A DNA stretch of 59,662 nucleotides from NCBI GenBank assembly GCA_035652755.1, contig DASRDE010000243.1, positions 1-59,662 of the forward strand. The letters run 5' to 3'. The DNA comes from Vulcanimicrobiaceae bacterium. GTDB taxonomy: Bacteria > Vulcanimicrobiota > Vulcanimicrobiia > Vulcanimicrobiales > Vulcanimicrobiaceae. Shown here piece by piece: positions 1 through 28,763 of this stretch. A program made the position numbers and the translations under genes. The notes beneath the pieces were generated by a model. That model made no database searches and was not told the DNA's origin. It saw nothing but the letters and a program-made list of their open reading frames with translations. Position 1 is the stretch's first letter. Each line of letters opens with the position of its first letter.

Positions 1-7
1 AAGCGAT

Positions 8-985
8 TTAAGGCGCGGGTTTGAAGTAGATTCCGTTGATCTTCCCGTCTTTGAACGAGATCTGCTCGAGCGCGCTGCCGTTCTTGCACGTGAAGCGATA
101 GATGTACACGCTGCCCCCGGGCAGCGATGCGTGCGTGACCAGCGCCACGGTTTGGATCGGTCCCAGCGCCGGGAGAATCTCGTGTAACTGCGCGACGGCG
201 TCGGCCGGAAGGTCGATCGAATACGCGGACTTATCGATTTTACCCGAGGCCCACGCTTCGAACTGCGCGCGCGCTATCTCTTGCACTCGAGCTGACGGTA
301 CGGCGGCGGAAGGCGCGTGCGACGGCGCGGGTGTCGGTTTGGGAGTTGGCACCGGTGTTGGTTTTGGTGTGGGTGCCGGTGTCGGTTTCGGAGTGGGCGC
401 CGGTGTCGGTTTCGGGGTGGGTTTCGGAGCCGGCGGAGCTACCGTCTTGGCTGCCGGTTTGGGCTTGGGCGCCGGAGACGGCGTGGGCTTCGGAGTCGGC
501 TTCCGAGTCGGCGTTGGCTTTGGAGTCGGCTTCGGAGTCGGAGAAGGCGACGGTGTCGGCTTCGGCGTCGGTTTTGGCGTCGGTTTCGGCGTTGGAGAAG
601 GCGACGGCGTCGGTTTTGGCGTCGCGGTAGGCGCAGGCAGCGCTTTGGGCGTTGGCTTGGGTTTCGGGGTGGGTGACGGCGTCGGTTTCGGAGATGCCGT
701 CGGCGTCGGCACGACGATCGGCGACGGCTCCGGCGCGGGCGACGGAATCGGTTTGGGGGTCGGCGAGGGTTTGGGCGTCGGCGAGGGTTTGGGCGTGCGC
801 GGTGCGCGCGTGGGCGAAGCGGACGGCGATGGCGATGCAGCTGTCGTCGGCAGCGGGGTCGGGGAAGGTGACGGTGACGGGAAAGGCGTCGACTGCAGGA
901 GCATCGCGAGTGCGAGCGCTGCGGTCATGGCCGGTCCTCGACTGCGTGCGGGTTCGGCTCGACGGGCAATCCGGCTTGCACCCAC
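8..985 (-). CDS. Secreted Pro/Thr/Lys-rich repeat protein with a ~95-aa non-repetitive C-terminal domain
   Basis: ORF 8..985 (325 aa, GTG start). An alternative ATG at 928 forms an ATGA overlap with the rhodanese stop. It has an Arg-rich n-region plus the hydrophobic [12 protein letters not shown] (signal-like), then ~200 aa of KPTP/SPSP repeats, then a globular tail ([12 protein letters not shown]...[14 protein letters not shown]). No family recognised. Confidence 0.6.
290..890. repeat. Low-complexity tandem-repeat DNA encoding the (K)PTP/SPSP linker
   Basis: Reiterated ggtgtcggtttcgg / ggcgtcggttttgg-type units on the + strand. They translate in frame on the - strand to [19 protein letters not shown] blocks, and the [18 protein letters not shown] block occurs twice. 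Confidence 0.7.
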
Positions 986-1242
986 GCCGCATAGCCGCCG
1001 TCGAGGGCTTCAACGCCCATATAACCGCGCTCGCGCAGGTTCGAGGCAATTCGCGAGCACGAGTTGCCGCTTCCGCAATACAGCACGACCCGCTCGTCCT
1101 TGGAAAACGGCGGGTCGTTCTCCAGTGCCGATCCCTCGTGGCGCGCCGAACCCGGAATGCGGGCGTCGTCGGGACGCTTGCGGATGTCGATGATCTTGAC
1201 GGATCCCGCGGCGGCGTTCTTCAGGTCGTCAACCGTTGCCAT
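925..1242 (-). CDS. Single-domain rhodanese-like sulfurtransferase
   Basis: 105 aa. Rhodanese layout with an active-site loop Cys in [13 protein letters not shown] and a GGYAAW tail. The stop overlaps ATG 928 of the downstream gene. Confidence 0.85.
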
Positions 1243-1317
1243 GCGAGCATGGATACAACAGGCGAGCGCCGCTCACCCGTTTTTCGCGGATGCGCGGCGC
1301 TCGCTGCCCGGTCTGCG

Positions 1318-2982
1318 TTAGTGGTGGTACGGGTCCGTTGCGAAGATGGCCTGAATCTGCGGCGTCGTCAACAGCGGCGTGGTGGATCCGGTCAGCGCAT
1401 CGGCGGTTGCGATAAATGCGTTCGCAACGAACGCATAACCCGTATTCGACGGATGCAGACCATCCCAACTCAGCAAACCCCCTCCGAAGGCGAGCGTGCA
1501 GCACTTGGGGCTGATCGTGAATTGTCCCGGAGCCGTACCGTTATACAACGCGGTGAATGTCGCGTTAATCGGGACCAGTCCGACGCCGTGGCCCGACGAG
1601 GAGCCGACTGCGTCGATGATCTGGTTGTAAGCGGCGTTCAAGGCAGTTGTGTCGGCGGCCAGCTTGTCGTTCAGGAAGTCGCACTCTGCTGCGAAGCCGG
1701 TTCCGGGCAGGACCGGCGTCGTGCCGTTGGGCGCGCACGTTGCGTTGTTCAGGCCCGGCGCCGGCGGCACCGCCAACGGATTTGCGGCGATTGCGGCGCC
1801 GATCTGCGTGAAGGCGCTGATAAAGCCCGTTTCGGTCAGATATGCACCGCTGTCGATGCCGTAGGCCGCTTGAACTTCCGCCGTGACGCCGGCTGCGTCG
1901 GCCTGCACTTGCGCGGGCGGAAGTGCAGGCGCAATTTGCGGAATGAAGTTGAGCAGCGCGCAGAAGAAGTAGTTCTGCAGCGGGCATTGCGCGGCCGGAT
2001 TCGCCGGGATGCTGCCCTGGAAGAATTGCGGCGTCTGCAGCACCGTCGGGAGATCGGCGAGAACGACCTTGGCGCCCGACGCATTAAGTTGGCCGACGAT
2101 CGACGTCAGATCGGCCTGGAACTGCGCGGGCGAATCGGTCGCCGGCGAGAGCTCGCCGGAGAAGACGAACTTGAGCAAATCGTTCGCGCCCAGCCACACG
2201 GTGACGAGCTTGGGATGCAGCGAAAGCGCCGCACTCAGTTCGGTCGCGCGTCCCGACCCGAGCGATTGCTGGAACTGGCCGAGAATCGGGTAGTACATTT
2301 GGCTTTCGCCCTGCACCAGCGACTGCAAGTTTCCGGCCGTCGGATCCAGCGGGTTGGAATTGTATCCGCAGTTCGGGCCGTTCGGCGGTCCGGTCAGCGG
2401 CGCCGTCATGGCGAGTGCTTCGTGCATGGTGATTCCGGGGACGCCGAGGTCGGCAATCGGCGCTCCGGGGTTCAAACGCACCGCAGCCCACGCAGTCGAT
2501 GAATACGCCTGGTCGTTGAAGCCGTCGCACGGCGAGTGCGTTGCGGTAAACGGCGGGGGCGGTGCGGCGTTTACGACGATCTCGCTGCCCAGCCCCGGTC
2601 CTTTAACGAGCGGAAGCGGACCGGTCAGCGGGTTTCCGAGCACGGTGTCGGCGTTGTAGCGCAACGGATCCAGCGCGATGCCGTTGATCTGCGCGTACAT
2701 CAACGCCCAAAAGCCGTTCTCCTGAGTGACCGGCACGATGTGGCCGGGAAGCCCCGATACCGGGCTTGTCACCGTGGGATCGCCGAGCAAACCGCTCGAC
2801 TGGTATCCTGCAGTCAAACTGTCGCCGATTCCGACGAAGTTTTGCTGCACGAGGCCGCCGTTCGCCGGCACTCCGGGAACGGGCGGCGCGCCCGGCGTCG
2901 CGGCGCCGGTTCCGTTTCCGCTGCATGCCGTTAATGCAGCGAGCGTCAGCAGTGCGAAGGGCCGTTGAAATACTCTTTTCAT
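1318..2982 (-). CDS. SGNH/GDSL-family hydrolase lipoprotein
   Basis: 554 aa. Lipobox LTLAALTAC-S, GDSL block FVGIGDSLTAGY, C-terminal D-x-x-H block SWDGLHPS. AAGGAA lies upstream of the ATG. Confidence 0.8.
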   Translation of the reverse strand: MKRVFQRPFALLTLAALTACSGNGTGAATPGAPPVPGVPANGGLVQQNFVGIGDSLTAGYQSSGLLGDPTVTSPVSGLPGHIVPVTQENGFWALMYAQINGIALDPLRYNADTVLGNPLTGPLPLVKGPGLGSEIVVNAAPPPPFTATHSPCDGFNDQAYSSTAWAAVRLNPGAPIADLGVPGITMHEALAMTAPLTGPPNGPNCGYNSNPLDPTAGNLQSLVQGESQMYYPILGQFQQSLGSGRATELSAALSLHPKLVTVWLGANDLLKFVFSGELSPATDSPAQFQADLTSIVGQLNASGAKVVLADLPTVLQTPQFFQGSIPANPAAQCPLQNYFFCALLNFIPQIAPALPPAQVQADAAGVTAEVQAAYGIDSGAYLTETGFISAFTQIGAAIAANPLAVPPAPGLNNATCAPNGTTPVLPGTGFAAECDFLNDKLAADTTALNAAYNQIIDAVGSSSGHGVGLVPINATFTALYNGTAPGQFTISPKCCTLAFGGGLLSWDGLHPSNTGYAFVANAFIATADALTGSTTPLLTTPQIQAIFATDPYHH

Positions 2983-2997
2983 CGTTAAATCCGTTCC

Positions 2998-4194
2998 TTA
3001 GAACTGAATGACGCTCGGCGAACCGATGCCGACTTCAAACTGAATCTGGGTAGCCTTCAGGCCGCCGACGACGGGCAGCGTATTGGAAGAACACGGTAAC
3101 GCGAAGCAATTCAACTGCTTGACGCCGTAGGGGCTGATGTTCGACGGACCGCCGCTGTTGAGCACGATCTGCGCGAAGACCATCTTTCCGAACGTCTGCG
3201 AGACGCCCGCGAAATACGCCATGTTGTGTTCGGGATACACGTCTTCGGGCAGATAGTCGCGCGACGCTTGCGGCTCCAGGAAGACCTTGGTCCTGGGGAA
3301 CGGCGTGTATTCCAAATAGAGAATCTGGTAGATCTGCGCGTGATTCGTTTGGTTCGCGCCTGCGGTGTGCGCCAGCCAGGTCGGCGCCGCCGTGAACGTT
3401 CCGAACATCTTGGGCGTGCGCAGGAACGGCAGCGTGAAGGCCACCGCGTACATCTGCGCGGTACGCGTATTCACGTTCGTATACGGGACTCCGTCGAGCC
3501 CGACGAACGGCACGATGTCGCCGCGGCCGTTCGAGGCCGCAACCGTCGACCACCGCGAGACGTACGTCGGCGTGACGACGATCGGAATGACGCGCCCTTT
3601 GAACGTCCCAAGGTCGATCAGCTTCTCGAAGAGCGCGAGGCCGAAGCGGTCCTTAGTCGTGACGTTGAACTGCGGATTGACGCCGGCGCACGTCGGCGAC
3701 GAGGTGCCGCTCAGATCGACGCACGACGGATTCACGCCGGGAGCCGGAGGAAAGCCCGGCGGCAGGAACAGCGGAACCTGGCCGCTGTTGAAGCCGACCG
3801 GGTAATGCTGAATTTCGTAGTAGTTCAGCACGAGCCGCAGCTGCGGTGAGACGCCGAAGCCGACGACCGCGTCGCCGCCGCCCGGCAGCCAACGCTTGCC
3901 GAGTGTGCCGATGTTGCCGAACGGATACGCCGACGAGGCGTCGACCATGTAGGTCCATCCGACGGGAAGACCGGTAGCGGCCGCGCCGCCGACGGGCTGC
4001 TGCGTGACGGGGGGGACCTGCGCTACGGTCGATTTCGACGGCGCGGGCTTGGCATTTTCCGCGTTCTTGATCGCGGTGTTCGCGCCCGAAACGGCAGAGC
4101 CGAAGACTCCGAACGGATCGGCGGCCGCCGGTGCCGTGGCCAGCACCCCCACCAACGTCAAGGCCGCGGAGGCACGAAGAAGCGTACGGACCAT
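2998..4194 (-). CDS. Putative outer-membrane beta-barrel protein (family not recognised)
   Basis: The track ORF starts at TTG 4206, but ATG 4194 has GGAG 6 nt upstream. Signal peptide MVRTLLRASAALTLVGVLATAPAAA. The composition is Gly/aromatic-rich and the protein ends ...PSVIQF (a terminal Phe is typical of OM barrels). Confidence 0.6.
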   Translation of the reverse strand: MVRTLLRASAALTLVGVLATAPAAADPFGVFGSAVSGANTAIKNAENAKPAPSKSTVAQVPPVTQQPVGGAAATGLPVGWTYMVDASSAYPFGNIGTLGKRWLPGGGDAVVGFGVSPQLRLVLNYYEIQHYPVGFNSGQVPLFLPPGFPPAPGVNPSCVDLSGTSSPTCAGVNPQFNVTTKDRFGLALFEKLIDLGTFKGRVIPIVVTPTYVSRWSTVAASNGRGDIVPFVGLDGVPYTNVNTRTAQMYAVAFTLPFLRTPKMFGTFTAAPTWLAHTAGANQTNHAQIYQILYLEYTPFPRTKVFLEPQASRDYLPEDVYPEHNMAYFAGVSQTFGKMVFAQIVLNSGGPSNISPYGVKQLNCFALPCSSNTLPVVGGLKATQIQFEVGIGSPSVIQF

Positions 4195-4212
4195 TTCGTT
4201 CTCCAACGGGGA

Positions 4213-4237
4213 TAGGCTTATTAAAATTAATAGCCTA
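4213..4237 (-). terminator. AT-rich imperfect hairpin between the RND stop and the barrel-protein start
   Basis: taggct-t-attaa aa ttaat-agccta: 11 paired positions with one bulge, in an otherwise GC-rich context. No clear U-tract, so it could be a terminator/attenuator or a promoter-region element. Confidence 0.3.
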
Positions 4238-4251
4238 GGGTTGGAGGTTGG

Positions 4252-7200
4252 TTACCTTACGGGTGCCGCAAAACCCTCGCGCTCCGCCGGCTCCACGGGG
4301 CCGTGCGGCGTCCCGTTGCCGCCGCGCCTCCCGCGCAGCTCGAGCGACTTGATGATCACGTACAAAACCGGCGTAATGGCCAAATTGAGGATCGTCGAGA
4401 CGATCATGCCGCCGAAGACCACCGTTCCCAACGAGTGGCGCGCCGCGCTGCCCGCGCCCGAGGCGAACACGAGCGGCGTTACCGCAATCACGAAGGCTAT
4501 CGACGTCATGAGGATCGGCCGCAGCCGCGTTTGCGCCGCCCGCGCAGCCGCGGTAACGATGTCCGCGCCTTGCGCGAGCTGCTGATTGGCGAACTCGACG
4601 ATCAGAATGGCGCTCTTGCTCGCGAGCCCGATCAGCATGACGTAGCCGACTTGAGCGTACGCATCGCTCGGCAGACCGCGCGCCATCATGAACAGCAGCG
4701 CGCCCAAAATCGAAGCCGGCACCGCGAGCAGCACGATCAGGGGATCGATGAAACTCTCATACTGCGCGGAGAGCACCAGGAACACGAAGACGATGCCGAT
4801 GCCGAAGATGATGATCGAGAGCGAGCCGCCCTGAATCTCGTCGAGCGTCAGGCCGGACCATTCATAGCTCACGCCGGGCGGATCGATCTGCTGCGCGAGG
4901 TTCTGCATGGCGGAGATGGCCTGTCCGGAACCTTTCCCGGGCGCCGCCGATCCGTTGATCTCGATCGATCTGAAGAGGTTGTAGTGGTTGATGATCGGCG
5001 CGCTCTTCGTCAACTGCGTCGACGCCAGGCCGCTTATCGGAATGATGCCGCCGCCCGACGAGCGCACGTAGAGGTACTGCAGGGCGCTCAACGTGGACCG
5101 GTACGGCATCTCCGCCTGCACGTAGACGCGGTACGAGCGGTTCAAATAGCTGAAATCGTTGACGTAGAACGATCCAATGTCCGTCTGCATCGTGGAAAAG
5201 ATATCGTTCAGCGACACGCCGATCGATTTGGCTTTATTGCGATCGACGTGGACCTCCAGCTGCGGCGAGTCGACTCGGAACGTCGTGAAGACCTGCGTCA
5301 GATCGGGATTCCGGTTGCCCATGCCCATGTAACCGTAGGCGGTGCGCATCAGCGTATCCAAGCCGACGTCCGCGTGATCCTCGAGCTCGAACTGGAAGCC
5401 GCCGAAGTTGCCGACGCCTTGAATGGCCGGCGGATTGAACGCGAAGATCTGCGCCTGCGGAATGCGGAAGAAGCCCATCTGCACGCGCTGGATGACCGAG
5501 TCGAGCGAATGCGCCGAACCTTTCCGATCGCCCCACGGCTTGAGCAGCACGAACATGATGCCGCGGTTCGGCGTCGCACCCGTGAAGCTGAACCCGGAGA
5601 CGTCGAAGACGTGCAGCACTTCCGGCTGGGCGCGGATGATCCGTTCGGCCTGCGCCGCCGTCGCGGCTTCGCTGGCGAGGGACGTTCCTTCTGGCGCCTG
5701 GACGGTCACGATGAAGTAGCCCTGATCCTCGTTGGGGATGAAGGCCGTCGGCGTGGTGCGGAAGAGATAGAACGTCGCGAGCAGCGCGATTGCAAAGAGG
5801 CCGGCGATGAGGTACCGCGCGCGTATGAGCGCGGGCAATGCGTCGCGGTACCAGCCGCGAAACGCCGTCAGGCCCCGGTTGAACCATTCGAAGAGCGCAA
5901 AGTTCGTTCGCCCTTCGTCGTGCAGAAGGCGCGCGGACATGACCGGCGTGAGGGTGAGCGAGGCGAAGAGCGAGATCGTGATCGAGGCCGCGATCGTCAT
6001 CGCGAATTGCTTATAGAGCTGCCCCGTCGTCCCCGGAAAGAACGCGACCGGGACGAACACCGCCAGCAGCACCAGCGACGAAGCGACCACTGCGCTTTGA
6101 ACTTCCCGCATTGCCGCAGCGGCGCCCTCGATGCCGCGCATGCCCTTCTCTTGAATGTAGCGCGCGATATTTTCGATGACGACGATGGCGTCGTCGACCA
6201 CCAGTCCGGTCGCGAGGGTCAAACCGAAGAGCGTAATCGTGTTTATCGTGAACCCAAAGATTTTCATGGCCGCGAAAGCGCCGATCAGCGACACGGGAAT
6301 CGTCACGGCGGGAATGAACGTCGAGCGCGGATCCTGCAGGAAGAGATAAATGACGGCGACGACCAGCAGGATGGAGAGAAGCAGCGTAAAGACGACTTCG
6401 CGTATCGACTCGTTTACGAACATCGAGGAGTCGAACGCGGTCTTCCACGTGACGCCCGGCGGGAAGGATTTCGAGAGCTGCGTAAGCTCGGCGGCGATGT
6501 CTTTGGTGACCTGCAGTGAATTTGCAGTCGGCAGCTGCAGAACGCCCAACCCGACGACCTTGCTGTCGCCGTCGAACTTGACGATGTTGGAGTAATCTTC
6601 CGCGCCCAGTTCCACACGCGAAACGTCGCCCAAACGCACGAACGCCCCGCCGCTTGCCGCGCGGACGATCACGTTGCGAAACTGCGCGGGATCGCTCAGG
6701 CGTCCTTCGGCGCGCACGCTCACGGTGAACGGCTGGTTGGGCGGCTCTGGCGCCGACCCGATGCTGCCCGCGGCAACTTCTACGTTCTGTTCGGAGAGCG
6801 AACTGATCACGTCGGAGACCGTCAAACCGCGCGCGAAGAGGGCGCTGGGATTGAGCCAAACGCGCATCGCGTAGCGCCGCTGCCCGAAGATGATGACGTT
6901 GCTGACGCCGCGCACGCGTTTGAGCGAGTTGACGACGTTGAGTTCGGCGTAGTTGCTCAAGACGAGCTGGCTGATCTGCGGGTTATGCGACTCCAGCGAG
7001 ATGGCCATGACGAAGCTGCCTGAGTTCTTCGTGACGGTAATCCCGGTTTGGATGACTTCGCCCGGGAGGCGTCCGCTGGCGGACTGTACCGCGTTTTGAA
7101 CGTCGGTTGCGGCGATGTCGAGATTGGTCCCCAAATTGAACGTGCACGTGATTTGGCTCGTGCCGTTGTTCGAGCTGGTCGAGCTGATATAGCGTAGACC

Positions 7201-7455
7201 TTCGACGCCATTGATCGCTTGCTCGAGCGGCGTCGTCACGGCCGACTCGACCGCCTGCGCGTTCGCGCCCGTATATACCGCCGTGACCGTGACGACGGGC
7301 GGCGCGATCTGCGGGTACTGCGCGATGGGCAGGGTCGGGATCGCGATCAGCCCCGCGATGAGCACGATCAGCGAGCAGACCGCCGAAAAAACGGGACGGC
7401 GAAGGAAGAACTCGATCAAGGACCCTCCGGAGTGACGGCGCGGCTTCCTTTGCAC
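4252..7455 (-). CDS. RND efflux transporter, AcrB/HAE1-like inner-membrane subunit
   Basis: 1067 aa. N-terminal FFLRRPVFS motif, two large periplasmic loops and a 12-TM layout typical of AcrB-family pumps. Confidence 0.95.
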   Translation of the reverse strand: MQRKPRRHSGGSLIEFFLRRPVFSAVCSLIVLIAGLIAIPTLPIAQYPQIAPPVVTVTAVYTGANAQAVESAVTTPLEQAINGVEGLRYISSTSSNNGTSQITCTFNLGTNLDIAATDVQNAVQSASGRLPGEVIQTGITVTKNSGSFVMAISLESHNPQISQLVLSNYAELNVVNSLKRVRGVSNVIIFGQRRYAMRVWLNPSALFARGLTVSDVISSLSEQNVEVAAGSIGSAPEPPNQPFTVSVRAEGRLSDPAQFRNVIVRAASGGAFVRLGDVSRVELGAEDYSNIVKFDGDSKVVGLGVLQLPTANSLQVTKDIAAELTQLSKSFPPGVTWKTAFDSSMFVNESIREVVFTLLLSILLVVAVIYLFLQDPRSTFIPAVTIPVSLIGAFAAMKIFGFTINTITLFGLTLATGLVVDDAIVVIENIARYIQEKGMRGIEGAAAAMREVQSAVVASSLVLLAVFVPVAFFPGTTGQLYKQFAMTIAASITISLFASLTLTPVMSARLLHDEGRTNFALFEWFNRGLTAFRGWYRDALPALIRARYLIAGLFAIALLATFYLFRTTPTAFIPNEDQGYFIVTVQAPEGTSLASEAATAAQAERIIRAQPEVLHVFDVSGFSFTGATPNRGIMFVLLKPWGDRKGSAHSLDSVIQRVQMGFFRIPQAQIFAFNPPAIQGVGNFGGFQFELEDHADVGLDTLMRTAYGYMGMGNRNPDLTQVFTTFRVDSPQLEVHVDRNKAKSIGVSLNDIFSTMQTDIGSFYVNDFSYLNRSYRVYVQAEMPYRSTLSALQYLYVRSSGGGIIPISGLASTQLTKSAPIINHYNLFRSIEINGSAAPGKGSGQAISAMQNLAQQIDPPGVSYEWSGLTLDEIQGGSLSIIIFGIGIVFVFLVLSAQYESFIDPLIVLLAVPASILGALLFMMARGLPSDAYAQVGYVMLIGLASKSAILIVEFANQQLAQGADIVTAAARAAQTRLRPILMTSIAFVIAVTPLVFASGAGSAARHSLGTVVFGGMIVSTILNLAITPVLYVIIKSLELRGRRGGNGTPHGPVEPAEREGFAAPVR

Positions 7456-7494
7456 CAGTTGACACGGCGCCGTTCGGGCCGGTTGCGGTCGCGC

Positions 7495-8388
7495 TTAAGT
7501 GAAAGCCTGCTCGGCGTGATAGGAACTGCGCGAAAGCGGGCTCGAGACGACTTGATGAAAGCCCTTCGAACGCGCCAGCGCCCCCAGCTCGGCAAAGCGC
7601 TCGGGCGTCACGAACTCGTGGACCGGAAGATGCTTCTTCGTCGGCTGCAGGTACTGCCCCATCGTGAAGATGTCCACCCCCACGGCGCGCGCGTCGTCCA
7701 TAGTCTGGGAGAGCTCCTCGTCGGTCTCGCCCAAGCCGAGCATGATCGACGTCTTGGTGTAGCGCTGCGGTGCGCGATTCTTGGCATGCGCGAGCACCGC
7801 GAGCGATTGGTCGTACTTGGCCCGCTTGTCGCGCACGCGCGGCGTGAGGCGGCGCACCGTCTCCAAGTTGTGAGCGAACACGTCCGGCGCCGCGTCCAGC
7901 ACGATGTCGAGCGCGTTCAAGTCGCCGCGATAATCGCCGCTGAGAATCTCCACGCGCGAGCCCGGGACGCGTTCGTGGATGGCGCGCACCGTGTTTGCGA
8001 AGATCAGCGCGCCCCCGTCGGCGAGATCGTCGCGATCGACGGCGGTAACGACCAAGTACCGCCACCCCAGATCGCGCACCGCTTCGGCGACGCGCACCGG
8101 TTCGAGCCAATCGACCGCGCCTTTCGGATTTCCGGTCTTCACGTTGCAGAAACGGCAGCCGCGCGTGCAGACCTCGCCCAGAATCATGATCGTCGCGGTG
8201 CCGGCACCCCAGCACTCGGCAAGGTTCGGGCACATCGCTTCTTTGCAAACGGTGTTCAGCGCCAAGCTGCCGACCTTCGCTTTGACGCGCTCGTACTCGT
8301 CGCCGTGCGGGAGCTTGACCTTGAGCCATTCGGGCTTCGGCGTGCGCGGCGCGCGCGCGCCGTCGATCAAGCTGATTTCGATTGCCAC
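7495..8388 (-). CDS. lipA: Lipoyl synthase
   Basis: Radical-SAM motif CTRGCRFCNV plus the auxiliary-cluster motif CKEAMCPNLAEC. Start moved to GTG 8388, because the track ORF to 9006 is an Arg-rich extension overlapping lipB. Confidence 0.93.
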   Translation of the reverse strand: MAIEISLIDGARAPRTPKPEWLKVKLPHGDEYERVKAKVGSLALNTVCKEAMCPNLAECWGAGTATIMILGEVCTRGCRFCNVKTGNPKGAVDWLEPVRVAEAVRDLGWRYLVVTAVDRDDLADGGALIFANTVRAIHERVPGSRVEILSGDYRGDLNALDIVLDAAPDVFAHNLETVRRLTPRVRDKRAKYDQSLAVLAHAKNRAPQRYTKTSIMLGLGETDEELSQTMDDARAVGVDIFTMGQYLQPTKKHLPVHEFVTPERFAELGALARSKGFHQVVSSPLSRSSYHAEQAFT

Positions 8389-21301: not shown

Positions 21302-21724
21302 TTAGCAGGGACCGAGCCACGTTTCGTTCGTGGTTTCGCGAAGAGTCGCGTACTTCTGGAATGCGCGCCACTGCGCGTAGTCGTCCATGCCGGATTGCCG
21401 GTCGAGGCGTTCGTGCAGCCCGATTGGAGAAGCGTTCGTCGATCCCGGATGCAAACAGATAAAGCCCGCGCTCTGTTCGAATCCGTCGCGTGAAAACGTG
21501 AGCCTGGACTGGCCGACCGGCGCGTCCCAAACGATGTAGAAGCCGCGGCTGTCCGTCACGGCTGCCGCCGAGCCCGCCGGGCCCTGCAGCGTTACGTGAA
21601 CGCCCGCGAGCGGCTGGCCCGTCTGCGCGTTGACGACGCTGCCTTCGATGTATGCCGGACCCGTGGCCAGCGCCAGCGCGGGGCAGAATGCCGCGAGAAG
21701 AAGAGTGAGGAGAAAACGTCTCAT
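21302..21724 (-). CDS. Small secreted carboxypeptidase-regulatory-like beta-sandwich protein, paralog 1 (C-terminal Cys tail)
   Basis: 140 aa. GGAGG 5 nt upstream. Signal peptide MRRFLLTLLLAAFCPALALA. Core IEGSVVNAQTGQPLAGVHV...TDSRGFY...FSRDGF, then CLHPG, and the protein ends ETTNETWLGPC. Confidence 0.75.
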   Translation of the reverse strand: MRRFLLTLLLAAFCPALALATGPAYIEGSVVNAQTGQPLAGVHVTLQGPAGSAAAVTDSRGFYIVWDAPVGQSRLTFSRDGFEQSAGFICLHPGSTNASPIGLHERLDRQSGMDDYAQWRAFQKYATLRETTNETWLGPC

Positions 21725-21793
21725 GATGACCTCCGTTCACTTCTTCAACGCGCGAGCACGCCGATTTGCGACAACGATTGCGCTAACGCGCGT

Positions 21794-22207
21794 TTAGCAG
21801 TTCGCCAGCGTCGTCGCGTTCGTCGTTTGCATCAAACCGGACGAGTTGCGCGAACGCAGCCAGTGCGCGTACGCGCCGCTGCCCGGATCCGTCGACAGGC
21901 GCACGTCGACGACCCGTTTCATCCCGGGATGAATGCACATGCGGCCGCTCAGCGGAACGTAACCGCGGCGGGTGAACGAGATCGTGACCGGTCCGAGCGG
22001 CACGTTGAACAGGTTGAAGAAGCCCTTTGCGTCCGACGTCGTCGAGACCGAGCCCGAGCGCGAAACCGCACGCACGTGCACGGCGCCCAAGTGCGCTTTC
22101 GTGGAGAAGTCGGAGATCGTGCCCTGCACGATTGCGGTGTTGGTCTGCGCCCATGCCGACGCGGGCACGAGCATGGCGCAAGCGAGCGCCCAAGCCAAAG
22201 GTTTCAT
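21794..22207 (-). CDS. Small secreted carboxypeptidase-regulatory-like beta-sandwich protein, paralog 2
   Basis: 137 aa. GGAGGG upstream. Signal peptide ending ASAWA-Q. Core VQGTISD...SDAKGFF...FTRRGY, then CIHPG, and the protein ends QTTNATTLANC. Confidence 0.75.
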   Translation of the reverse strand: MKPLAWALACAMLVPASAWAQTNTAIVQGTISDFSTKAHLGAVHVRAVSRSGSVSTTSDAKGFFNLFNVPLGPVTISFTRRGYVPLSGRMCIHPGMKRVVDVRLSTDPGSGAYAHWLRSRNSSGLMQTTNATTLANC

Positions 22208-22248
22208 GGTTGCCCTCCCGGCTGCCGTTTACCCAGCCGGGCGGCTCT

Positions 22249-22659
22249 TTAGCACGGGCCCATGTAGCGGGTCGACGTCGTCTGTTCGAAGACCGGATTC
22301 TTCATCAGCGAGCTCAGGAGCACGTAACCCTGGCCGGTGTGTTCGTGCAGGTGCGTCGACACCGTCCGCGTCAGGCCCGGATAGATGCAGATCAGGTGCT
22401 CTTCGAGCATGAAGCCTTCGCGCTGAAAGGCGATGATCGCGGGTCCCGGCGGCACGTCCCACAACATGTAGAAGCCCTTTGCGTCCGTGCGCGAGGTCAC
22501 GTTTCCGCTGGCCGTAACGGCCATCACCTGAACGTCGGGGATGGGCTTGCCCGTGCGGGCATCGTTGACGGTGCCTTCCACGATGGCGGTCGTAAGGTCC
22601 GCGCGGCCCTGAGCCGTAGCGAGCATCGCCAGGGTGAGAATAGCCAAGAGCCGTTTCAT
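22249..22659 (-). CDS. Small secreted carboxypeptidase-regulatory-like beta-sandwich protein, paralog 3
   Basis: Start set at ATG 22659 (GGAGG 6 nt upstream), within over-extended ORF 22249..23565. 136 aa. Signal peptide MKRLLAILTLAMLATAQG. Core VEGTVNDARTGKPIPDVQV...TDAKGFY...FQREGF, then CIYPG, and the protein ends EQTTSTRYMGPC. Confidence 0.75.
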   Translation of the reverse strand: MKRLLAILTLAMLATAQGRADLTTAIVEGTVNDARTGKPIPDVQVMAVTASGNVTSRTDAKGFYMLWDVPPGPAIIAFQREGFMLEEHLICIYPGLTRTVSTHLHEHTGQGYVLLSSLMKNPVFEQTTSTRYMGPC

Positions 22660-22673
22660 AAAAAGCCTCCGGT

Positions 22674-24251
22674 TTATAACGCTTCGGCCTGGGCAAATGC
22701 GACGCCGCTTCCCGAAATCCGTGCCGAAGCAACCGCGAGCAGCAGGGCAGTCTCCGCGATACTGGCCGCAATTGCCAGCGCCGCACCTGCCGCGGCCGAA
22801 TGCAGGAGCAACGCTCCCGCCACGGCGAGCAACGCGGGGGGCAGCGCAAGCAAGTACGTCAGCAGCGCACGGACCAGCGCGAGCGGTCCGCGCTGGTCGA
22901 CCGACGACGGAAAGAGCGCGTACAGCACCAAACCCACCGCTCGCAACTGAAGAACCGCGGCCGCGGCGACTGGAAACCCGGCTAAGATGAGACCAGGCGC
23001 GCGCATTGCGATTGCCCAAGCGGCAACGCCCGCACAAAGCGCGAGCGCAACGCGCCAGGACGTGCCGCACATCCATGCCAGCAAGCGCATCCAAAGCGGA
23101 TCGGGGCCGATCCACCACAGCGGTTTGCGCAGATCCGCCGCCAGGCCGATCGCCGATCCCATTGCGACGAACATGACGATCAGGTTCGTCGCCATATAAG
23201 CGAAAAGCGCGGTTTCGAGCAGCGGATCCTTCGAAGCGGCTGCCATTCGACCGAAGATCGTGCCGCATACCACGCACGCGCCGGCGCCCAGGACGAAAAG
23301 CCGCTGGATCGATCCCGATCTGCGCAGCGCGAGCCACTCCTTCCAGACGATCGTCCACGAACCGCGCAGCGGTTCGCGCCCTTGCGAAGAGCCTCCGCTG
23401 CGGCGATACGCATGCTCCATCGCAAAAACCGCTCCGCCGCCGCGTTTGGCGCGCTCGCGAAACTGCGATGCGCGAATCGATGCCGCGTACAGCTCGGGTC
23501 CCAAGCCGGTGCCTACTGCGAACGAACCGCCGATCAAGAGCGCGGCGGCTCCGAAGAACGACCACACCGCCGCCGGGTTACCGCCGAAGACTGCGTTGAC
23601 GGCGCGGCCCGCGCCGAGTTGCTCGATGCCGTGCGCGGCGTGGCGCATCTCCGGACCGATCAGCGTGGAGAGCAGCACGAGCAGCGGAAGCAATCCCGCT
23701 GCCGCAAGTGCGCCCGCGAAGCTCTGCGCGCTGCGCATGCCGGCGACGGCGCGCAGTTTGAGCATCGGAATGGCGATCGCCGCGGCAAGCGCCGATCCGG
23801 CAACGACCGCCAGACTCACACCCAGCACGAGGCCGCTCGCAGCGAACATGACGGTGTAGATCACGAGCGTAAACGTCATGCGTAAGATCGCGGAGGCACA
23901 GCGGCGCAGCTGCAGCCACATGACGACAAGCCGCTCGGGAATGTGCGACCGCGTGAGAAAGAGTGCCTCGGCGCTCGACGAGAACGTTCCGGCCACTCCC
24001 GACGCAGCACCGTACGCCATCACGCCCAGCAGCGTGACGTAGGCGAAGAAGATCGCGCTCGCATAGGGCTCGGCCACCGAAGCGCCGGGCAGCGCGCCGT
24101 GGTTGCGCGCGCGAAAGACCGCGATGAAAGTGAAATAGGCGAAGACGAAGAGATAGAGCAGCGCGCGCCCGGGCCTCCGCACGACGCTCATGCAGCGGTT
24201 GACGATCTGGCGCCACTCCAGGTATGCCAGCGCCGAAAGGCCGCCGTTCAT
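22674..24251 (-). CDS. Polytopic membrane protein, putative ABC exporter permease
   Basis: Start set at ATG 24251, 5 nt after the ATPase stop. 525 aa. Two hydrophobic multi-TM halves separated by a charged segment (ASQFRERAKRGGG...RRSGGSSQGREP). The layout resembles the Pfam 'putative ABC exporter' family, but this is unverified. Confidence 0.7.
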   Translation of the reverse strand: MNGGLSALAYLEWRQIVNRCMSVVRRPGRALLYLFVFAYFTFIAVFRARNHGALPGASVAEPYASAIFFAYVTLLGVMAYGAASGVAGTFSSSAEALFLTRSHIPERLVVMWLQLRRCASAILRMTFTLVIYTVMFAASGLVLGVSLAVVAGSALAAAIAIPMLKLRAVAGMRSAQSFAGALAAAGLLPLLVLLSTLIGPEMRHAAHGIEQLGAGRAVNAVFGGNPAAVWSFFGAAALLIGGSFAVGTGLGPELYAASIRASQFRERAKRGGGAVFAMEHAYRRSGGSSQGREPLRGSWTIVWKEWLALRRSGSIQRLFVLGAGACVVCGTIFGRMAAASKDPLLETALFAYMATNLIVMFVAMGSAIGLAADLRKPLWWIGPDPLWMRLLAWMCGTSWRVALALCAGVAAWAIAMRAPGLILAGFPVAAAAVLQLRAVGLVLYALFPSSVDQRGPLALVRALLTYLLALPPALLAVAGALLLHSAAAGAALAIAASIAETALLLAVASARISGSGVAFAQAEAL

Positions 24252-24256
24252 TGCGT

Positions 24257-24967
24257 TCAGCGCGTCAGCTCGAGGAAGACGTCTTCCGCATCGGCATGCG
24301 TTCCGGTCCGCGCTTGCAGCTCGGCGAACGTTCCGCAGCCGACGAGGCGTCCGTTCTTGAGAATGACGACCCGGTCGCAAATCGCCTGCGCTTGGGCGAG
24401 CATGTGCGTGCTGATCATGGTTGCGGCGCCCTGCGCCTGCAGCTCCGCGATGATGCCGCGCAGCTCGCGCTGTCCGAGCGGGTCGAGGCCGATCATTGGC
24501 TCGTCGAATAGGATCACCGGCGTGGCAGCGAGCACCGTCGCCGCAACCAGCGTCTTCTGACGCATGCCCTTGGAAAGCTCCGAACCGAGCACGTCGCGCT
24601 GGGAAATCATGTCGAACCGCTCGAGCAGTTCGGAGGCGCGCCTTTGCCAGCCGTCTTTCAGGCGGCAGCTCTTGGCGACGAACACCATGTGTTCCCAAAC
24701 CGTGAGCATCGGATAGACGTCGGGCGTCTCTGGGATCAGCGCGACCGTCTGGCCGCGCCGGTTACCGAGCTCCGCGCCGTCCCACAGAAAGCGGCCCTCG
24801 TCGGGGCGCAGCAATCCTGCGGCGCATAAGAAGGTCGTGCTTTTTCCGGCGCCGTTGGGTCCGAGCAGTCCGACGATCTCGCCGCCGGCTACGTCAAAGG
24901 AGAGCCCGTCGACCGCCAGTTTCTTCCCGAAACGTTTGGTGAGCGCTCGAACCTCGAAGGCGGGCAT
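24257..24967 (-). CDS. ABC transporter ATP-binding protein
   Basis: 236 aa. Walker A GPNGAGKST, signature LSKGMRQK, Walker B VILFDEP. Confidence 0.92.
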   Translation of the reverse strand: MPAFEVRALTKRFGKKLAVDGLSFDVAGGEIVGLLGPNGAGKSTTFLCAAGLLRPDEGRFLWDGAELGNRRGQTVALIPETPDVYPMLTVWEHMVFVAKSCRLKDGWQRRASELLERFDMISQRDVLGSELSKGMRQKTLVAATVLAATPVILFDEPMIGLDPLGQRELRGIIAELQAQGAATMISTHMLAQAQAICDRVVILKNGRLVGCGTFAELQARTGTHADAEDVFLELTR

Positions 24968-25024
24968 CCGCCTCTATTGCCGGCGGCTTCGCGCGGTTCC
25001 CTGCGGTGCTGTGTTCAGACTCGG

Positions 25025-25588
25025 CTACGAGAGCAGCGTCTCGCGCTTACCGTTCCAGCCCAGCACTCGCGCGAGCATGTCGGCGCGGTTCTTGGCGCCG
25101 GTCTTTCGAAGCAGCTGCTTGACGTAATCCGCGACCGTGGTTTCGGCGATCGAGAGCGACTGCGCGATTTCGCTGCCGCTCAAACCGTTCAAGATGAGTG
25201 TCAGCACTTCGACTTCGCGCTTGGTCAATGCGTAGCGTTCCGCGGTGCCGGTCAGGTCCTCGCGACGAGTTCCGTGCTCGATGAAGACCGCCACGTACGA
25301 ACCGGCACTGCCGGCCAGGCGGGAGACGCGCAAGACGAGGCTCGGCACCGGCCTGATGACCGCTTCCCGCTCGTCGCCCGAGTCGCGCCAGGCGCGAACG
25401 ACCTTGGCTACGGCCTCTTCCAGGATGTGGGGCAGCCGATGCTGTTCTCCCGGTGCGGGGTTGGGGACGCAGAGCAGCATGTCTGCCGCTTCCGGCTCGG
25501 CGAAAGCGATGTGCAGGCTTTCGTCGAGGAACAATACACGCGGCTTGGCGCGTCGTTTAACAATCGTTTCCAATGCGTCGTTGTCCAC
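25025..25588 (-). CDS. LuxR-family transcriptional regulator with an uncharacterised N-terminal sensor-like domain
   Basis: 187 aa, GTG start. C-terminal HTH LTKREVEVLTLILNGLSGSEIAQSLSIAETTVADYVKQLLRKTG. The N-terminal ~110 aa resembles the adjacent small ORF. Confidence 0.85.
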   Translation of the reverse strand: MDNDALETIVKRRAKPRVLFLDESLHIAFAEPEAADMLLCVPNPAPGEQHRLPHILEEAVAKVVRAWRDSGDEREAVIRPVPSLVLRVSRLAGSAGSYVAVFIEHGTRREDLTGTAERYALTKREVEVLTLILNGLSGSEIAQSLSIAETTVADYVKQLLRKTGAKNRADMLARVLGWNGKRETLLS

Positions 25589-25662
25589 GGCACCCCGGCG
25601 AGAGATCCGATAGGTAGAGTGCCCTGTTTGGTACGGTGTCCGGGGCCTCCTGGCCGGGCAGG

Positions 25663-25986
25663 CTACGCGCTCTCGCGGAGGCGGAGTTCTTCGAAGATCA
25701 GGGCCGTCAGTGAGAGCGAGGGGCCGACGATGGGGACTGTGTGCATCAGGCAGCGGTCGCTCACGAAGCGGGTCGAGTTCGTACGCTCGTTCGCCCGCGC
25801 CAGCGCTTCCACGTCTTTGGGTAACCCGTCTTCCCCGAAAAACTCGGCGAAGAATGGATCGTCGCTCTCTTCTCGAGCTACGACGTTACATTCTTCGTCG
25901 ACTATTACTACAAATCGCCGCGCGCGTCTGCGGGCCACTGCGTCCTCCACTTTATTGAAAATACTTCTCCACAAAGTAGACTGCAA
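25663..25986 (-). CDS. Stand-alone sensor-like domain protein (paralog of the LuxR regulator's N-terminal domain)
   Basis: 107-aa ORF from TTG 25986 with no SD. An alternative GTG at 25938 is preceded by GGAGGA and would give ~91 aa. By-eye similarity to the N-terminus of the 25025..25588 protein: RRRARRFVVIVDEE vs KRRAKPRVLFLDES; LPKDVEAL vs LPHILEEA; LSLTALIFEE vs SYVAVFIEH. Confidence 0.55.
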   Translation of the reverse strand: MQSTLWRSIFNKVEDAVARRRARRFVVIVDEECNVVAREESDDPFFAEFFGEDGLPKDVEALARANERTNSTRFVSDRCLMHTVPIVGPSLSLTALIFEELRLRESA

Positions 25987-26016: not shown

Positions 26017-26141
26017 GTGCTACTAAAGGACTACTGCGATGGCGGGCCGCCGTCCGGGTCTTGATGACTAGCTGGAAGGGGCCGTACATACTCCTTCCTT
26101 CAGCGACCCCGCGAGAACGCGCGCTGCAAAAGTTGACGCAA

Positions 26142-26792
26142 CTAAACTATTCCGTTGCGGAATGCGTAGATGGCGATTTGCGTTCTGGCGGTGACGTTGA
26201 GTTTGGAGAAAATGTTGGCGATGTGATTCTTGATCGTCTTATCGGAAACAAGAAGGCGTCCGGCGATCTCTTTGTTGGTTAGGCCTTCGGAGACCAGACG
26301 CACGACTTCCAGTTCGCGCGGCGAGAGTTCGCCCATTTCCGGCGAGGCGTGCTTGCGGAGCAGCAAGCCCGACAGGCGGGGATCGGCGTAGAACCCGTCG
26401 ACGCCCAGGCGTTTGAGCGAGGCGATCAGTTCGGCGGGCGTGACGTCCTTGACGATGTACCCGTCGGCGCCTGCGGAGATGGCCTTCATCATGACGGTGG
26501 TGCTCAACTGCGACCCCAGGACGCAGATGCGCACGCCCGGGATGGCGGCGCGGGTACGCGCCACCGCTTCTTCAATGCCTGCGACTTCGGCGTCGCACCC
26601 GATGACGACGATGTCTGGAGCGGAGCGCTGGAGCGCTTCGGCGTCGTACGAACGGGAGTCCCCGACGATGGTCAGGCCCTCGTCCCGGTCGAGAATGCTG
26701 CACAACGCCTTGCATAAGAGCTGTTGCGATTCGATTACGTAAACGCGGTAGGACGGCGCCGTTACCTGCGCCGGTTCCTTGACTTGAAACAT
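26142..26792 (-). CDS. NarL/FixJ-type response regulator (REC + LuxR HTH) with an atypical receiver
   Basis: Start set at ATG 26792 (GAGGGGG upstream). HTH LSPRELEVVRLVSEGLTNKEIAGRLLVSDKTIKNHIANIFSKL. The receiver keeps the Ser (VLGSQ) and Lys (GYIVKD) positions, but the acidic pocket reads VIESQ and the expected phospho-Asp position reads VVIGCDAE. Confidence 0.85.
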   Translation of the reverse strand: MFQVKEPAQVTAPSYRVYVIESQQLLCKALCSILDRDEGLTIVGDSRSYDAEALQRSAPDIVVIGCDAEVAGIEEAVARTRAAIPGVRICVLGSQLSTTVMMKAISAGADGYIVKDVTPAELIASLKRLGVDGFYADPRLSGLLLRKHASPEMGELSPRELEVVRLVSEGLTNKEIAGRLLVSDKTIKNHIANIFSKLNVTARTQIAIYAFRNGIV

Positions 26793-26963: not shown

Positions 26964-28763
26964 CTAAACGGCTTCCCGGAATTGCTTGCGGTATAGCCGC
27001 GCGTAGGGGCCGTTGGCGGCCAGAAGCTGCGCGTGCGTGCCCGACTCGGCGATGCGGCCGTTCTCGACCACGAAGATCACGTCGGCCGAAAGCACAGTGG
27101 AGAGGCGGTGCGCGATCACCAGGCTCGTGCGGCCGCGCATGAGCGGGACGAGCGCCGCTTGGATCGCGGCTTCGCTGTGCGAGTCGAGCGAACTGGTCGC
27201 CTCGTCCAGAATGAGGATCTTGGGGTCCTTGAGCAGGACGCGGGCGATCGCCAGGCGCTGGCGCTCGCCGCCGGAGAGCTTGTGCCCGCGTTCGCCCACC
27301 ACGGTCTGGTAGCCGTCGGGCAGCGACCGGATGAACTCGTCGATGTTCGCGGCGGCTGCTGCCGCATGGATCTGATCGGCGGTGGCGTCGGGCCTGGCAT
27401 AGCGAAGATTCCGCTCGACGGTGTCGTGGAACAGGTACGTCTCCTGCGTGACGATGCCGATGTCGCGGCGCAGGGCCTCGAGCGGGATGGCGCGCACGTC
27501 CTGCCCGTCGACGAGAACGCGGCCGCTCGCGGCGTCATAAAAGCGCGGAACCAGTTGCGTGATCGTGGTCTTGCCGGCTCCGGAGGGGCCGACGAACGCG
27601 GCGATTTGTCCGGGATGGACTTCGAAAGAGACGCCCCGCAATGCCTCGCGCGGTCCGCCGTAGGAGAACCGCACGTCCTCGAACCGGATGTCGCCGCGCA
27701 GCGCCGCCGGTGCGGCCGCGCCCGGGGGCTCGTACTCCTCGGTGCGCATGTCCAGATAATCGAAGATGCGTTCGAAGACGGCCAGCGCGCTGACGATCTG
27801 CACCTGAATGCCGGCCAGCGCTGCGGCCGACCCGTACAGGCGCGTTCCGATGAATTGGATGAAGGCGACGATCACGCCGATCCGCGCCAGGTCGTGCAGG
27901 GCGAGCCAGCCGCCTCCCAGCCAGACCAGTGCCGGACCGATCGTAACCATCCCCGCGATGAGCGCCATGAACCATCTGCCCACCATGGCCAGATTGATCT
28001 CCAGACGCATCAAGTCGGTGCCGGCCTTGTAGAACCGGTCGCGCTCGTACGGCTCGCGCGCGAACGATTTAATCAGGGTGATGCCCGAGATCGAGAGCGT
28101 TTCTTGCGTGATGGACTCGATCTCGTCGCGCTTTTCGCGCGTGCGTTTGCGCACGTCGTACATGCGTCTTCCGACGGGCCCGAGCGGTACGATCATCAGC
28201 GGAACGACCGGCAGCGAGATGAGCGCGAGCTTCCAGTTCCAGGCAAACATCGCGACGAGGGTCGTCAGGATCACGAAGACGTTCGTCAGGATCGTCGTCA
28301 GCGTACCCGTTACGACGTTGTCGATGTTGTCGACGTCGTTGCTCACGCGGTTCATGATCTCGCCCGTCTTCGTCCCGGTGAAGAAGGACAGGGGCATGCG
28401 GTGCAGATGCGCGACGAGGCGCGTGCGGATGTCGCGCATGATGCCTTCGCCGACGAACGAATTCAAGTAGCCTTGTGCCACGCCGATCAGCGCGGCAATG
28501 AGCGCCGATGCGAGCATGACGCCCACGTCGATCGCCAGCTCGCGCATGCTGCGGCCGGGAATCGCGCGATCGATGATTCTAGCGGTAACGAATCCGGGAA
28601 CCAGGCCGAGCGCGGATGCGGCCAGGATGCACCCGAGCACGAAGGCTTCCTGCTTCCAATAGGGCGCAAAAAGCGCACCGATGCGCTTCCAGTCGATGCG
28701 CTTGCGAATCTGCGGTTTGTCGGGCCGGTTCATCGCCGACCACATCAGCCCGTACGGGTGCAT
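26964..28763 (-). CDS. Fused TMD-NBD ABC exporter (MsbA-like, type I exporter)
   Basis: Start set at ATG 28763, 11 nt after the upstream stop. Six-TM domain, then Walker A GPSGAGKTT, signature LSGGERQR, Walker B ILILDEATS. Confidence 0.92.
   Translation of the reverse strand: MHPYGLMWSAMNRPDKPQIRKRIDWKRIGALFAPYWKQEAFVLGCILAASALGLVPGFVTARIIDRAIPGRSMRELAIDVGVMLASALIAALIGVAQGYLNSFVGEGIMRDIRTRLVAHLHRMPLSFFTGTKTGEIMNRVSNDVDNIDNVVTGTLTTILTNVFVILTTLVAMFAWNWKLALISLPVVPLMIVPLGPVGRRMYDVRKRTREKRDEIESITQETLSISGITLIKSFAREPYERDRFYKAGTDLMRLEINLAMVGRWFMALIAGMVTIGPALVWLGGGWLALHDLARIGVIVAFIQFIGTRLYGSAAALAGIQVQIVSALAVFERIFDYLDMRTEEYEPPGAAAPAALRGDIRFEDVRFSYGGPREALRGVSFEVHPGQIAAFVGPSGAGKTTITQLVPRFYDAASGRVLVDGQDVRAIPLEALRRDIGIVTQETYLFHDTVERNLRYARPDATADQIHAAAAAANIDEFIRSLPDGYQTVVGERGHKLSGGERQRLAIARVLLKDPKILILDEATSSLDSHSEAAIQAALVPLMRGRTSLVIAHRLSTVLSADVIFVVENGRIAESGTHAQLLAANGPYARLYRKQFREAV

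Follow-up and report, generated by a model that had tools for sequence, protein, structure and literature searches.

Do seven tightly spaced genes on one strand form a single inherited system, or are they several units that have come to lie side by side? This question is raised by a block of seven genes, here called g1 to g7, that runs from position 25986 down to 21302 on the minus strand of contig DASRDE010000243.1 (assembly GCA_035652755.1) from a Vulcanimicrobiaceae bacterium. The whole stretch of DNA that we analysed, 59,662 nucleotides (nt) long, is called the window. An earlier, sequence-only reading took the block for one candidate undescribed envelope module made of a sensor-domain pair, a LuxR-type regulator, an ATP-binding cassette (ABC) exporter and three secreted paralogs. 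Our results indicate that the locus is probably one operon, in which a type V ABC exporter is combined with regulators and secreted accessory proteins that are specific to the lineage, and not a new envelope system. Judged by gene content across related genomes, the seven genes are a conserved core exporter plus two clade-specific cassettes rather than one co-inherited module. The original observation is confirmed, and the interpretation given to it is supported in part. A literature search recovered no described system with this gene combination, as had been claimed, and found nothing relevant on the permease family. The locus does not open a long-standing question; what looked like a module is a conserved core to which two cassettes belong in one clade.

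For comparison, 55 genome loci were fetched with an alignment of the permease and all genes were mapped onto them; about 40 of the loci were informative. In the window, the list of open reading frames (ORFs) and the sequence confirmed seven minus-strand ORFs between 25986 and 21302, as well as the tight, co-directional spacing reported at first (74, 57, 5, 14, 41 and 69 nt from g1 to g7). All seven genes are real and under purifying selection, because the ratios of nonsynonymous to synonymous substitution (dN/dS) against the closest relative, L056, are 0.016–0.124. Orthologs of each gene are present in other genomes. The start of g1 is most likely the GTG at 25938, which has a GGAGG 5 nt upstream and gives a protein of 91 amino acids (aa; 25663 to 25938), as in the public gene calls for the same contig. 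A 107-aa version would use the TTG at 25986, which falls inside a conserved –35-like hexamer. The corrected start of g5 is the ATG at 22659, giving 136 aa. The sequence-only reading held that only the ATPase and the helix-turn-helix protein could be placed in families. This was mistaken, for Pfam assigns every member of the block except g1, with g4 falling in PF16962 and g5–g7 in PF13620.

The core of the locus is the pair g3–g4. The 525-aa permease g4 (22674 to 24251) matches PF16962 (ABC_export, "Putative ABC exporter") with 65.6 bits against a gathering cut-off of 29.7, the best stretch being residues 262–512. PF16962 is carried by all 115 g4 homologs, which are named Candidatus Baltobacteraceae, Eremiobacterota or Vulcanimicrobiota; we place the source of the window as an uncultured member of the Baltobacteraceae (Eremiobacterota/WPS-2). 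The protein has 6+6 hydrophobic segments with a basic cytoplasmic linker of 68 aa between the halves; the longest non-cytoplasmic loop is about 35 aa at most, there is no large extracytoplasmic loop, and Pfam gave no FtsX match. An AlphaFold model of g4 built from 64 sequences had a predicted local distance difference test (pLDDT) value of 85 and a predicted template modelling score (pTM) of 0.77. The best match of this model in the PDB by Foldseek was 8k1m_B (probability 1.00, template modelling (TM) score 0.45, E 9e-3, 496 columns), with 15% identity in the structural alignment. Half-length matches were to CcmB, NosY, Wzm and ABCG5/8 (TMt 0.55–0.58). Structure 8K1M is Rv1217c–Rv1218c, a type V multidrug/rifampicin exporter of Mycobacterium tuberculosis, where two transmembrane domains are fused in the one chain of Rv1217c and the ATPase Rv1218c is a homodimer with the non-canonical signature YSKGN (PMC11406275).

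The ATPase is encoded separately by g3 (24257 to 24967), which ends 5 nt upstream of g4. It is a 236-aa protein of the ABC-2/ABCA type with intact Walker A and B motifs, and its signature motif is the non-canonical LSKGM in place of LSGGQ in all 49 g3 orthologs of the fetched loci. The closest solved relatives of this ATPase domain are ABCA1/7/4/3, followed by Rv1218c (5.5e-34), LptB and NosF. No substrate-binding protein is present in the locus, which agrees with the sequence-only reading and is consistent with an exporter. Because a fused 6+6-transmembrane permease and a separate ATPase occur together with a best fold match to 8k1m_B, we conclude that g3–g4 is, on its modelled structure, a predicted type V ABC exporter with the Rv1217c/Rv1218c architecture, with sequence homology of the permease undetectable.

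Two narrower identities for g3 were rejected: a lantibiotic-protection ATPase (TIGR03740; 142 bits against a curated cut-off of 309.75) and the DrrA ATPase (TIGR01188; 165.2 bits against 312.45). As a separate observation, no gene of the locus evolves faster than g4. Its identity to the L056 counterpart is 85%, compared with 91–99.5% for its neighbours, and its dN/dS against L056 is 0.124 compared with 0.007–0.108 for the others. Across genomes its identity falls to 49–65% while that of g2 holds at 83–88%.

How the pair is distributed answers much of the opening question. The g3–g4 genes are present in nearly all loci, and in about 40 of these they lie between an MsbA-like exporter gene and convergent scoBA, the MsbA-like gene ending only 3 nt before g3 in many loci. 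In the window, the minus-strand order is dnaK, grpE, dnaJ, a glyoxalase gene, the 599-aa MsbA-like fused ABC exporter (ABC_membrane plus ABC_tran; 26964 to 28763), a 216-aa NarL/FixJ-family response regulator (26142 to 26792) and then g1 to g7. The block faces convergent scoB–scoA, and the g7 stop codon is 10 nt from the scoB stop codon. The first description of these flanks was incomplete and left out the MsbA-like exporter and the glyoxalase gene between the NarL-type regulator and dnaJ.

The NarL-type gene, the first of a variable regulatory cassette, is followed by g1 and g2; in most genomes the ABC pair occurs without this cassette, and in about 50 genomes it occurs without g5–g7. Only the window's clade (L001, L017, L030 and L056–L060), where g2 is 83–97% identical, has a type A cassette, which separates the MsbA-like gene from g3. 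A diverged type B cassette is present in L002, L019 and L026 with g2 39–46% identical. The NarL-type gene co-occurs with g1–g2 in L001, L019, L026, L030, L056 and L069. Elsewhere the position of the cassette is taken by a 399-aa MFS transporter (L004, L007, L008, L009 and L010, at about 5130–6300) or by a BTAD-like/LuxR regulator (L041, 5164–6252), and L028 has a gap of the same size. The secreted paralogs are confined to the type A clade. Three of them are present in L001, L030, L056 and L057, and two, g5 and g7, in L060, where g6 is missing; the contigs of L058 and L059 end within or just after the second paralog. Because the core, the regulatory cassette and the secreted trio differ in distribution, the idea of one seven-gene module is not borne out. 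In the gene-neighbourhood comparison suggested by the sequence-only reading, the ABC pair is conserved next to scoBA, and the small paralogs co-occur with it in one clade only. The type A clade is monophyletic in three trees, built from housekeeping genes, g3–g4 and the MsbA-like gene, and therefore the co-occurrence of the secreted paralogs with the exporter reflects, on these trees, essentially one gain.

The cassette also occurs in L069 (GCA_963830545.1, a 2.8-Mb contig, positions 1–7703), where a divergently oriented operon beside it carries a C39 peptidase gene and five FapBC genes (PF27129). This operon is a Fap-like functional-amyloid system in an Eremiobacterota genome. A 147-aa protein in L069 had no Pfam match.

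What do the secreted proteins look like? The products of g5 (22249 to 22659, 136 aa), g6 (21794 to 22207, 137 aa) and g7 (21302 to 21724, 140 aa) are paralogs that are mutually 31–35% identical. Each gene is preceded by a GGAGG-type ribosome-binding site, and each N-terminus reads by eye, rather than by a predictor, as a Sec signal peptide with a basic start, a hydrophobic core and an AxA-type site; the paralogy of the three, as first described, is upheld. All three proteins exceed the gathering cut-off of 32.3 bits for PF13620 (CarboxypepD_reg), with 41.7 bits for g5, 39.1 for g6 and 42.5 for g7. Outside this domain they have a C-terminal tail of about 35 aa with a Cys pair. Both Cys residues are invariant across 20 sequences of the family. 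The first, within the motif C-x-[HY]-P-G, belongs to the final strands of the beta-sandwich, and the second is located at or near the C-terminus. These positions suggest that the pair may form a disulfide that staples the tail.

The family is rare. For g5 there are 12 clusters at 90% identity, a word-indexed search returned only close orthologs, and a metagenome scan with the g5–g7 alignment added three true loci and five generic CarboxypepD_reg matches. Locus L064 was dropped after inspection. Two motifs were dropped as well: a possible metal-binding HxHEH motif in g5, which reads MYEHSG or MYEHQG in orthologs, and a lipobox in g7, the Cys of which is missing in L001. Separately, most orthologs of g6 and g7, but not g5, have N-x-T sequons (NET, NAT, NVT) a few positions ahead of the C-terminal Cys.

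In a second, Rubrimentiphilum-like clade, the gene directly after g4 encodes a different secreted protein, about 150 aa long (L014:8589–9044, L016:8592–9053 and L018:8592–9050; frameshifted in L013 and L029). It has one Cys near each end, is unrelated to g5–g7 and gave no match in Pfam. From its sequence and position, this protein is compatible with the theme of a periplasmic partner.

The 187-aa g2 protein (25025 to 25588) consists of a PAS-like N-terminal domain (about residues 1–115) and a GerE/LuxR helix-turn-helix (residues 120–171) that scores 54.5 bits against a cut-off of 23.5. The g1 protein is cytoplasmic, with a PAS-like topology. That g1 resembles the g2 N-terminus was claimed before, and the claim holds up at the level of profiles. 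In a BLASTP comparison of the two single sequences the match was not significant (E 0.019 over 25 aa). Alignment of the g1-family profile with the g2 N-domain profile by hhalign gave a probability of 83.7% and an E value of 8e-6, with 86 colinear columns from end to end, and a hidden Markov model (HMM) of the g1 family matched the N-domains of diverged g2 orthologs with E about 1e-4. Because of these profile-level matches, it is supported that g1 is a stand-alone, remote paralog of the g2 N-terminal PAS-like domain.

The g1 family is tiny. A single-sequence HMMER search of 1.84 billion representatives gave 12 cluster representatives and no g2-like protein, and a word-indexed search with the g2 N-domain gave close orthologs only. 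Two apparent g1 relatives, P0137 (1461 aa) and P0149 (1128 aa), were spurious, being tandem-repeat proteins that scored through many short stretches. Neither g1 nor the g2 N-domain had a match in Pfam. The model of g1 (pLDDT 84) has the order beta-beta-alpha-alpha-beta-beta-beta, which is the PAS order of strands and helices, and its Foldseek list consists mostly of PAS, Cache and roadblock folds with TM scores of 0.4–0.56. Because every E value in that list was 0.036 or higher, we call g1 no more than PAS-like.

No histidine kinase is encoded within 10 kb on either side of the locus. The GerE domain of the NarL-type neighbour scores 71.6 bits (cut-off 23.5), and its receiver domain is weak (31.5 bits) and appears degenerate; for the N-terminal half of this domain, no alignment was obtained with the Escherichia coli NarL sequence used for comparison. 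The NarL-type protein may be an atypical, phosphorylation-independent regulator.

Are the seven genes nevertheless transcribed together in the window? Upstream of g1 is a putative promoter (25958 to 25986, minus strand) with the hexamers TTGCAG and TATTTT. All five clade genomes share both hexamers, whereas the 17-nt spacer between them varies. Further upstream is a putative operator (26020 to 26033, minus strand), the block TAGTCCTTTAGTAG, which holds two AGTAG repeats 11 nt apart and occurs once in the window; the other four genomes of the clade in the alignment retain its consensus, TAGTCCWTTRGTAG. A consensus scan for promoters and terminators gave sites no more numerous than in shuffled sequence, and it missed the putative g1 promoter, the –35 of which matches the consensus at three of six positions. 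None of the internal spacers of g1–g7 contains a terminator-like site. Since such sites are lacking there and g5 begins 14 nt past g4, the simplest interpretation is a single transcript that spans all seven genes, which are probably one operon.

Together, these data make it reasonably probable, in our judgement, that the block is a clade-specific operon built around a conserved Eremiobacterota type V ABC exporter. The ancestral unit is g3–g4, usually located right after the MsbA-like exporter gene and facing scoBA. By analogy with Rv1218c, g3 would function as a homodimer, and the pump would extract from the inner membrane a hydrophobic or amphipathic compound, which could be a small toxic molecule or one that resembles an envelope lipid. 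Upstream of this unit, the window's clade received the cassette of the kinase-less NarL-type regulator, g1 and g2. The g2 protein would then be a one-component PAS-like/LuxR transcription factor that controls the pump, and g1, as a free copy of the g2 sensor domain, could modulate g2 by pairing or competing with that domain. The conserved promoter-like block would drive g1 through g7 as a single transcript. Downstream, 14 nt past the permease, two or three CarboxypepD_reg beta-sandwich paralogs were added, which would be exported by Sec and have their C-terminal tails stapled by a disulfide. The least certain step is that g5–g7 would reside in the periplasm or envelope, where they would accept the product that the pump exports or serve as a scaffold for it. 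A genome survey reported lipopolysaccharide-synthesis genes and BamA in the phylum Eremiobacterota, from which an outer membrane was inferred (PMC6664022). In its most specific form, the proposal would make g5–g7 disulfide-stapled periplasmic acceptors for the hydrophobic product that a type V exporter of the PF16962 family delivers, a soluble-partner-dependent route in a diderm phylum with almost no experimental study, with expression set by a previously undescribed PAS-like/LuxR regulator and a free sensor-domain modulator. We consider this full version a long shot.

Several observations weigh against the operon proposal. The fold match of g4 to Rv1217c is of moderate strength only, with a TM score of 0.45, and g4 has no sequence similarity to Rv1217c; when the PDB was searched with a profile of 20 g4 homologs, no ABC permease appeared among the matches with E values up to 1. 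The PAS assignment of g1 is at the level of topology only, given the Foldseek E values of at least 0.036 and no Pfam match. The link of g5–g7 to the pump comes from their place in the operon, which was in effect gained only once in evolution, and the g4–scoB junction is elsewhere empty or occupied by unrelated cytoplasmic genes (ArsR-like, pirin, GGDEF/NB-ARC). Finally, the NarL-type/g1/g2 cassette adjoins scoBA without the ABC pair in L069, so the target of the cassette need not be g3–g4.

One explanation that builds on the junction is that g5–g7 are unrelated cargo in a variable g4–scoB slot, co-transcribed with the exporter and sharing no function with it. In about 17 of 40 genomes this slot has inserts of 0.3–3.2 kb with unrelated genes such as those just listed, the trio is present in one clade only, and the exporter works without it in most genomes. 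On the other hand, g5–g7 are on the same strand as g4 and start 14 nt downstream of it with no space for a promoter of their own. The arrangement of g4 and the trio is also kept across five species-level genomes in which g4 is just 49–85% identical to that of the window, and the second clade likewise has a secreted protein directly after g4. The variable content of the slot supports the cargo explanation equally as much as the second clade supports a partner role. Taking both sides, we regard unrelated cargo as a plausible though rather unlikely account.

It is unlikely that the NarL-type/g1/g2 cassette controls other targets, for example surface or biofilm genes, and that its position upstream of the ABC pair is incidental. 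The arrangement in L069, where the cassette lies next to scoBA without g3–g4 and diverges from the Fap-like amyloid operon, fits this idea, as does the occurrence of the pair without the cassette in most genomes. However, type A cassettes and the diverged type B cassettes (g2 39–46% identical) are located directly upstream of g3–g4 in at least nine loci, and the gap between g2 and g3 is only 57 nt without a terminator-like site.

We find it doubtful that the seven genes are a regulator-coupled module that senses envelope stress or antimicrobials in the manner of BceAB–BceRS, which was one of two working hypotheses of the sequence-only reading. As in Bce systems, transcription regulators adjoin an ABC transporter gene here, and the sub-threshold matches of g3 to lantibiotic-protection and DrrA ATPase models point the same way. 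Both matches, however, are far under the curated cut-offs given above. The BceB permease is an FtsX-type protein with ten transmembrane segments and a large extracellular domain, and the Bce regulator is of the OmpR type. By contrast, g4 has 6+6 transmembrane segments with neither an FtsX domain nor a large outer loop, the regulators here are of the GerE/LuxR type, and the histidine kinase of Bce modules has no counterpart at this locus. The seven genes are also not inherited as a unit. A Bce-like module thus fails because the permease is of the wrong type and no kinase is present. For anti-phage defence, PADLOC returned only generic ATPase and helix-turn-helix matches and nothing specific for the members other than the ATPase. 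The second working hypothesis, in which the ABC pair is dedicated to exporting or handling g5–g7, has adjacency and co-orientation as its sole support and is highly improbable because the three proteins have apparent Sec signal peptides with AxA-type sites and the pump is far more widespread than they are (about 50 genomes have the pair without the trio); moreover, the transporter has no C39 peptidase, g5–g7 have no double-glycine leader, and the substrates of type V exporters are lipids, polymers and small hydrophobic molecules.

Besides the Bce modules, the proposed operon around a type V exporter can be compared with three known kinds of system. The first concerns regulation. In its layout, g2 may resemble the EL222-type PAS(LOV)–LuxR one-component regulators: in less than 200 aa it combines a small alpha/beta domain at the N-terminus, which is sensor-like, with a GerE/LuxR helix-turn-helix behind it. 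Unlike that type, g2 lacks a flavin-binding motif and matches neither PAS nor LOV in Pfam, and the neighbouring gene, g1, encodes a further copy of the sensor domain as a separate protein. The domain shared by g1 and the g2 N-terminus defines one small, lineage-restricted family, and the Cys-tailed CarboxypepD_reg proteins define another.

The second comparison is with NosDFY(L) and CcmAB, which are type V ABC systems working for partner proteins in the periplasm. As in these, the operon includes genes for secreted proteins and for an ATPase of the ABC-2 type; half of g4 matches NosY and CcmB in fold, and NosF is among the relatives of g3. The systems differ in that the candidate partners here are CarboxypepD_reg beta-sandwiches and not NosD, NosL or CcmE, in that g4 is a fused 6+6 protein, and in that the locus has no N2O-reductase or cytochrome-maturation context.

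The third and closest comparison is with Rv1217c–Rv1218c. No secreted partners are described for the mycobacterial pump whereas g5–g7 are encoded here, and its regulator is the TetR-type Rv1219c whereas the regulators of the window are PAS-like/LuxR and NarL-type proteins. In both systems a dedicated regulator gene is located nearby, both 6-transmembrane domains are in one polypeptide with the ATPase encoded separately, and the signature motif contains S-K-G (LSKGM in g3, YSKGN in Rv1218c). With this comparison, PF16962 can now be read as a type V exporter family with fused transmembrane domains, the closest solved relative of which is Rv1217c–Rv1218c.

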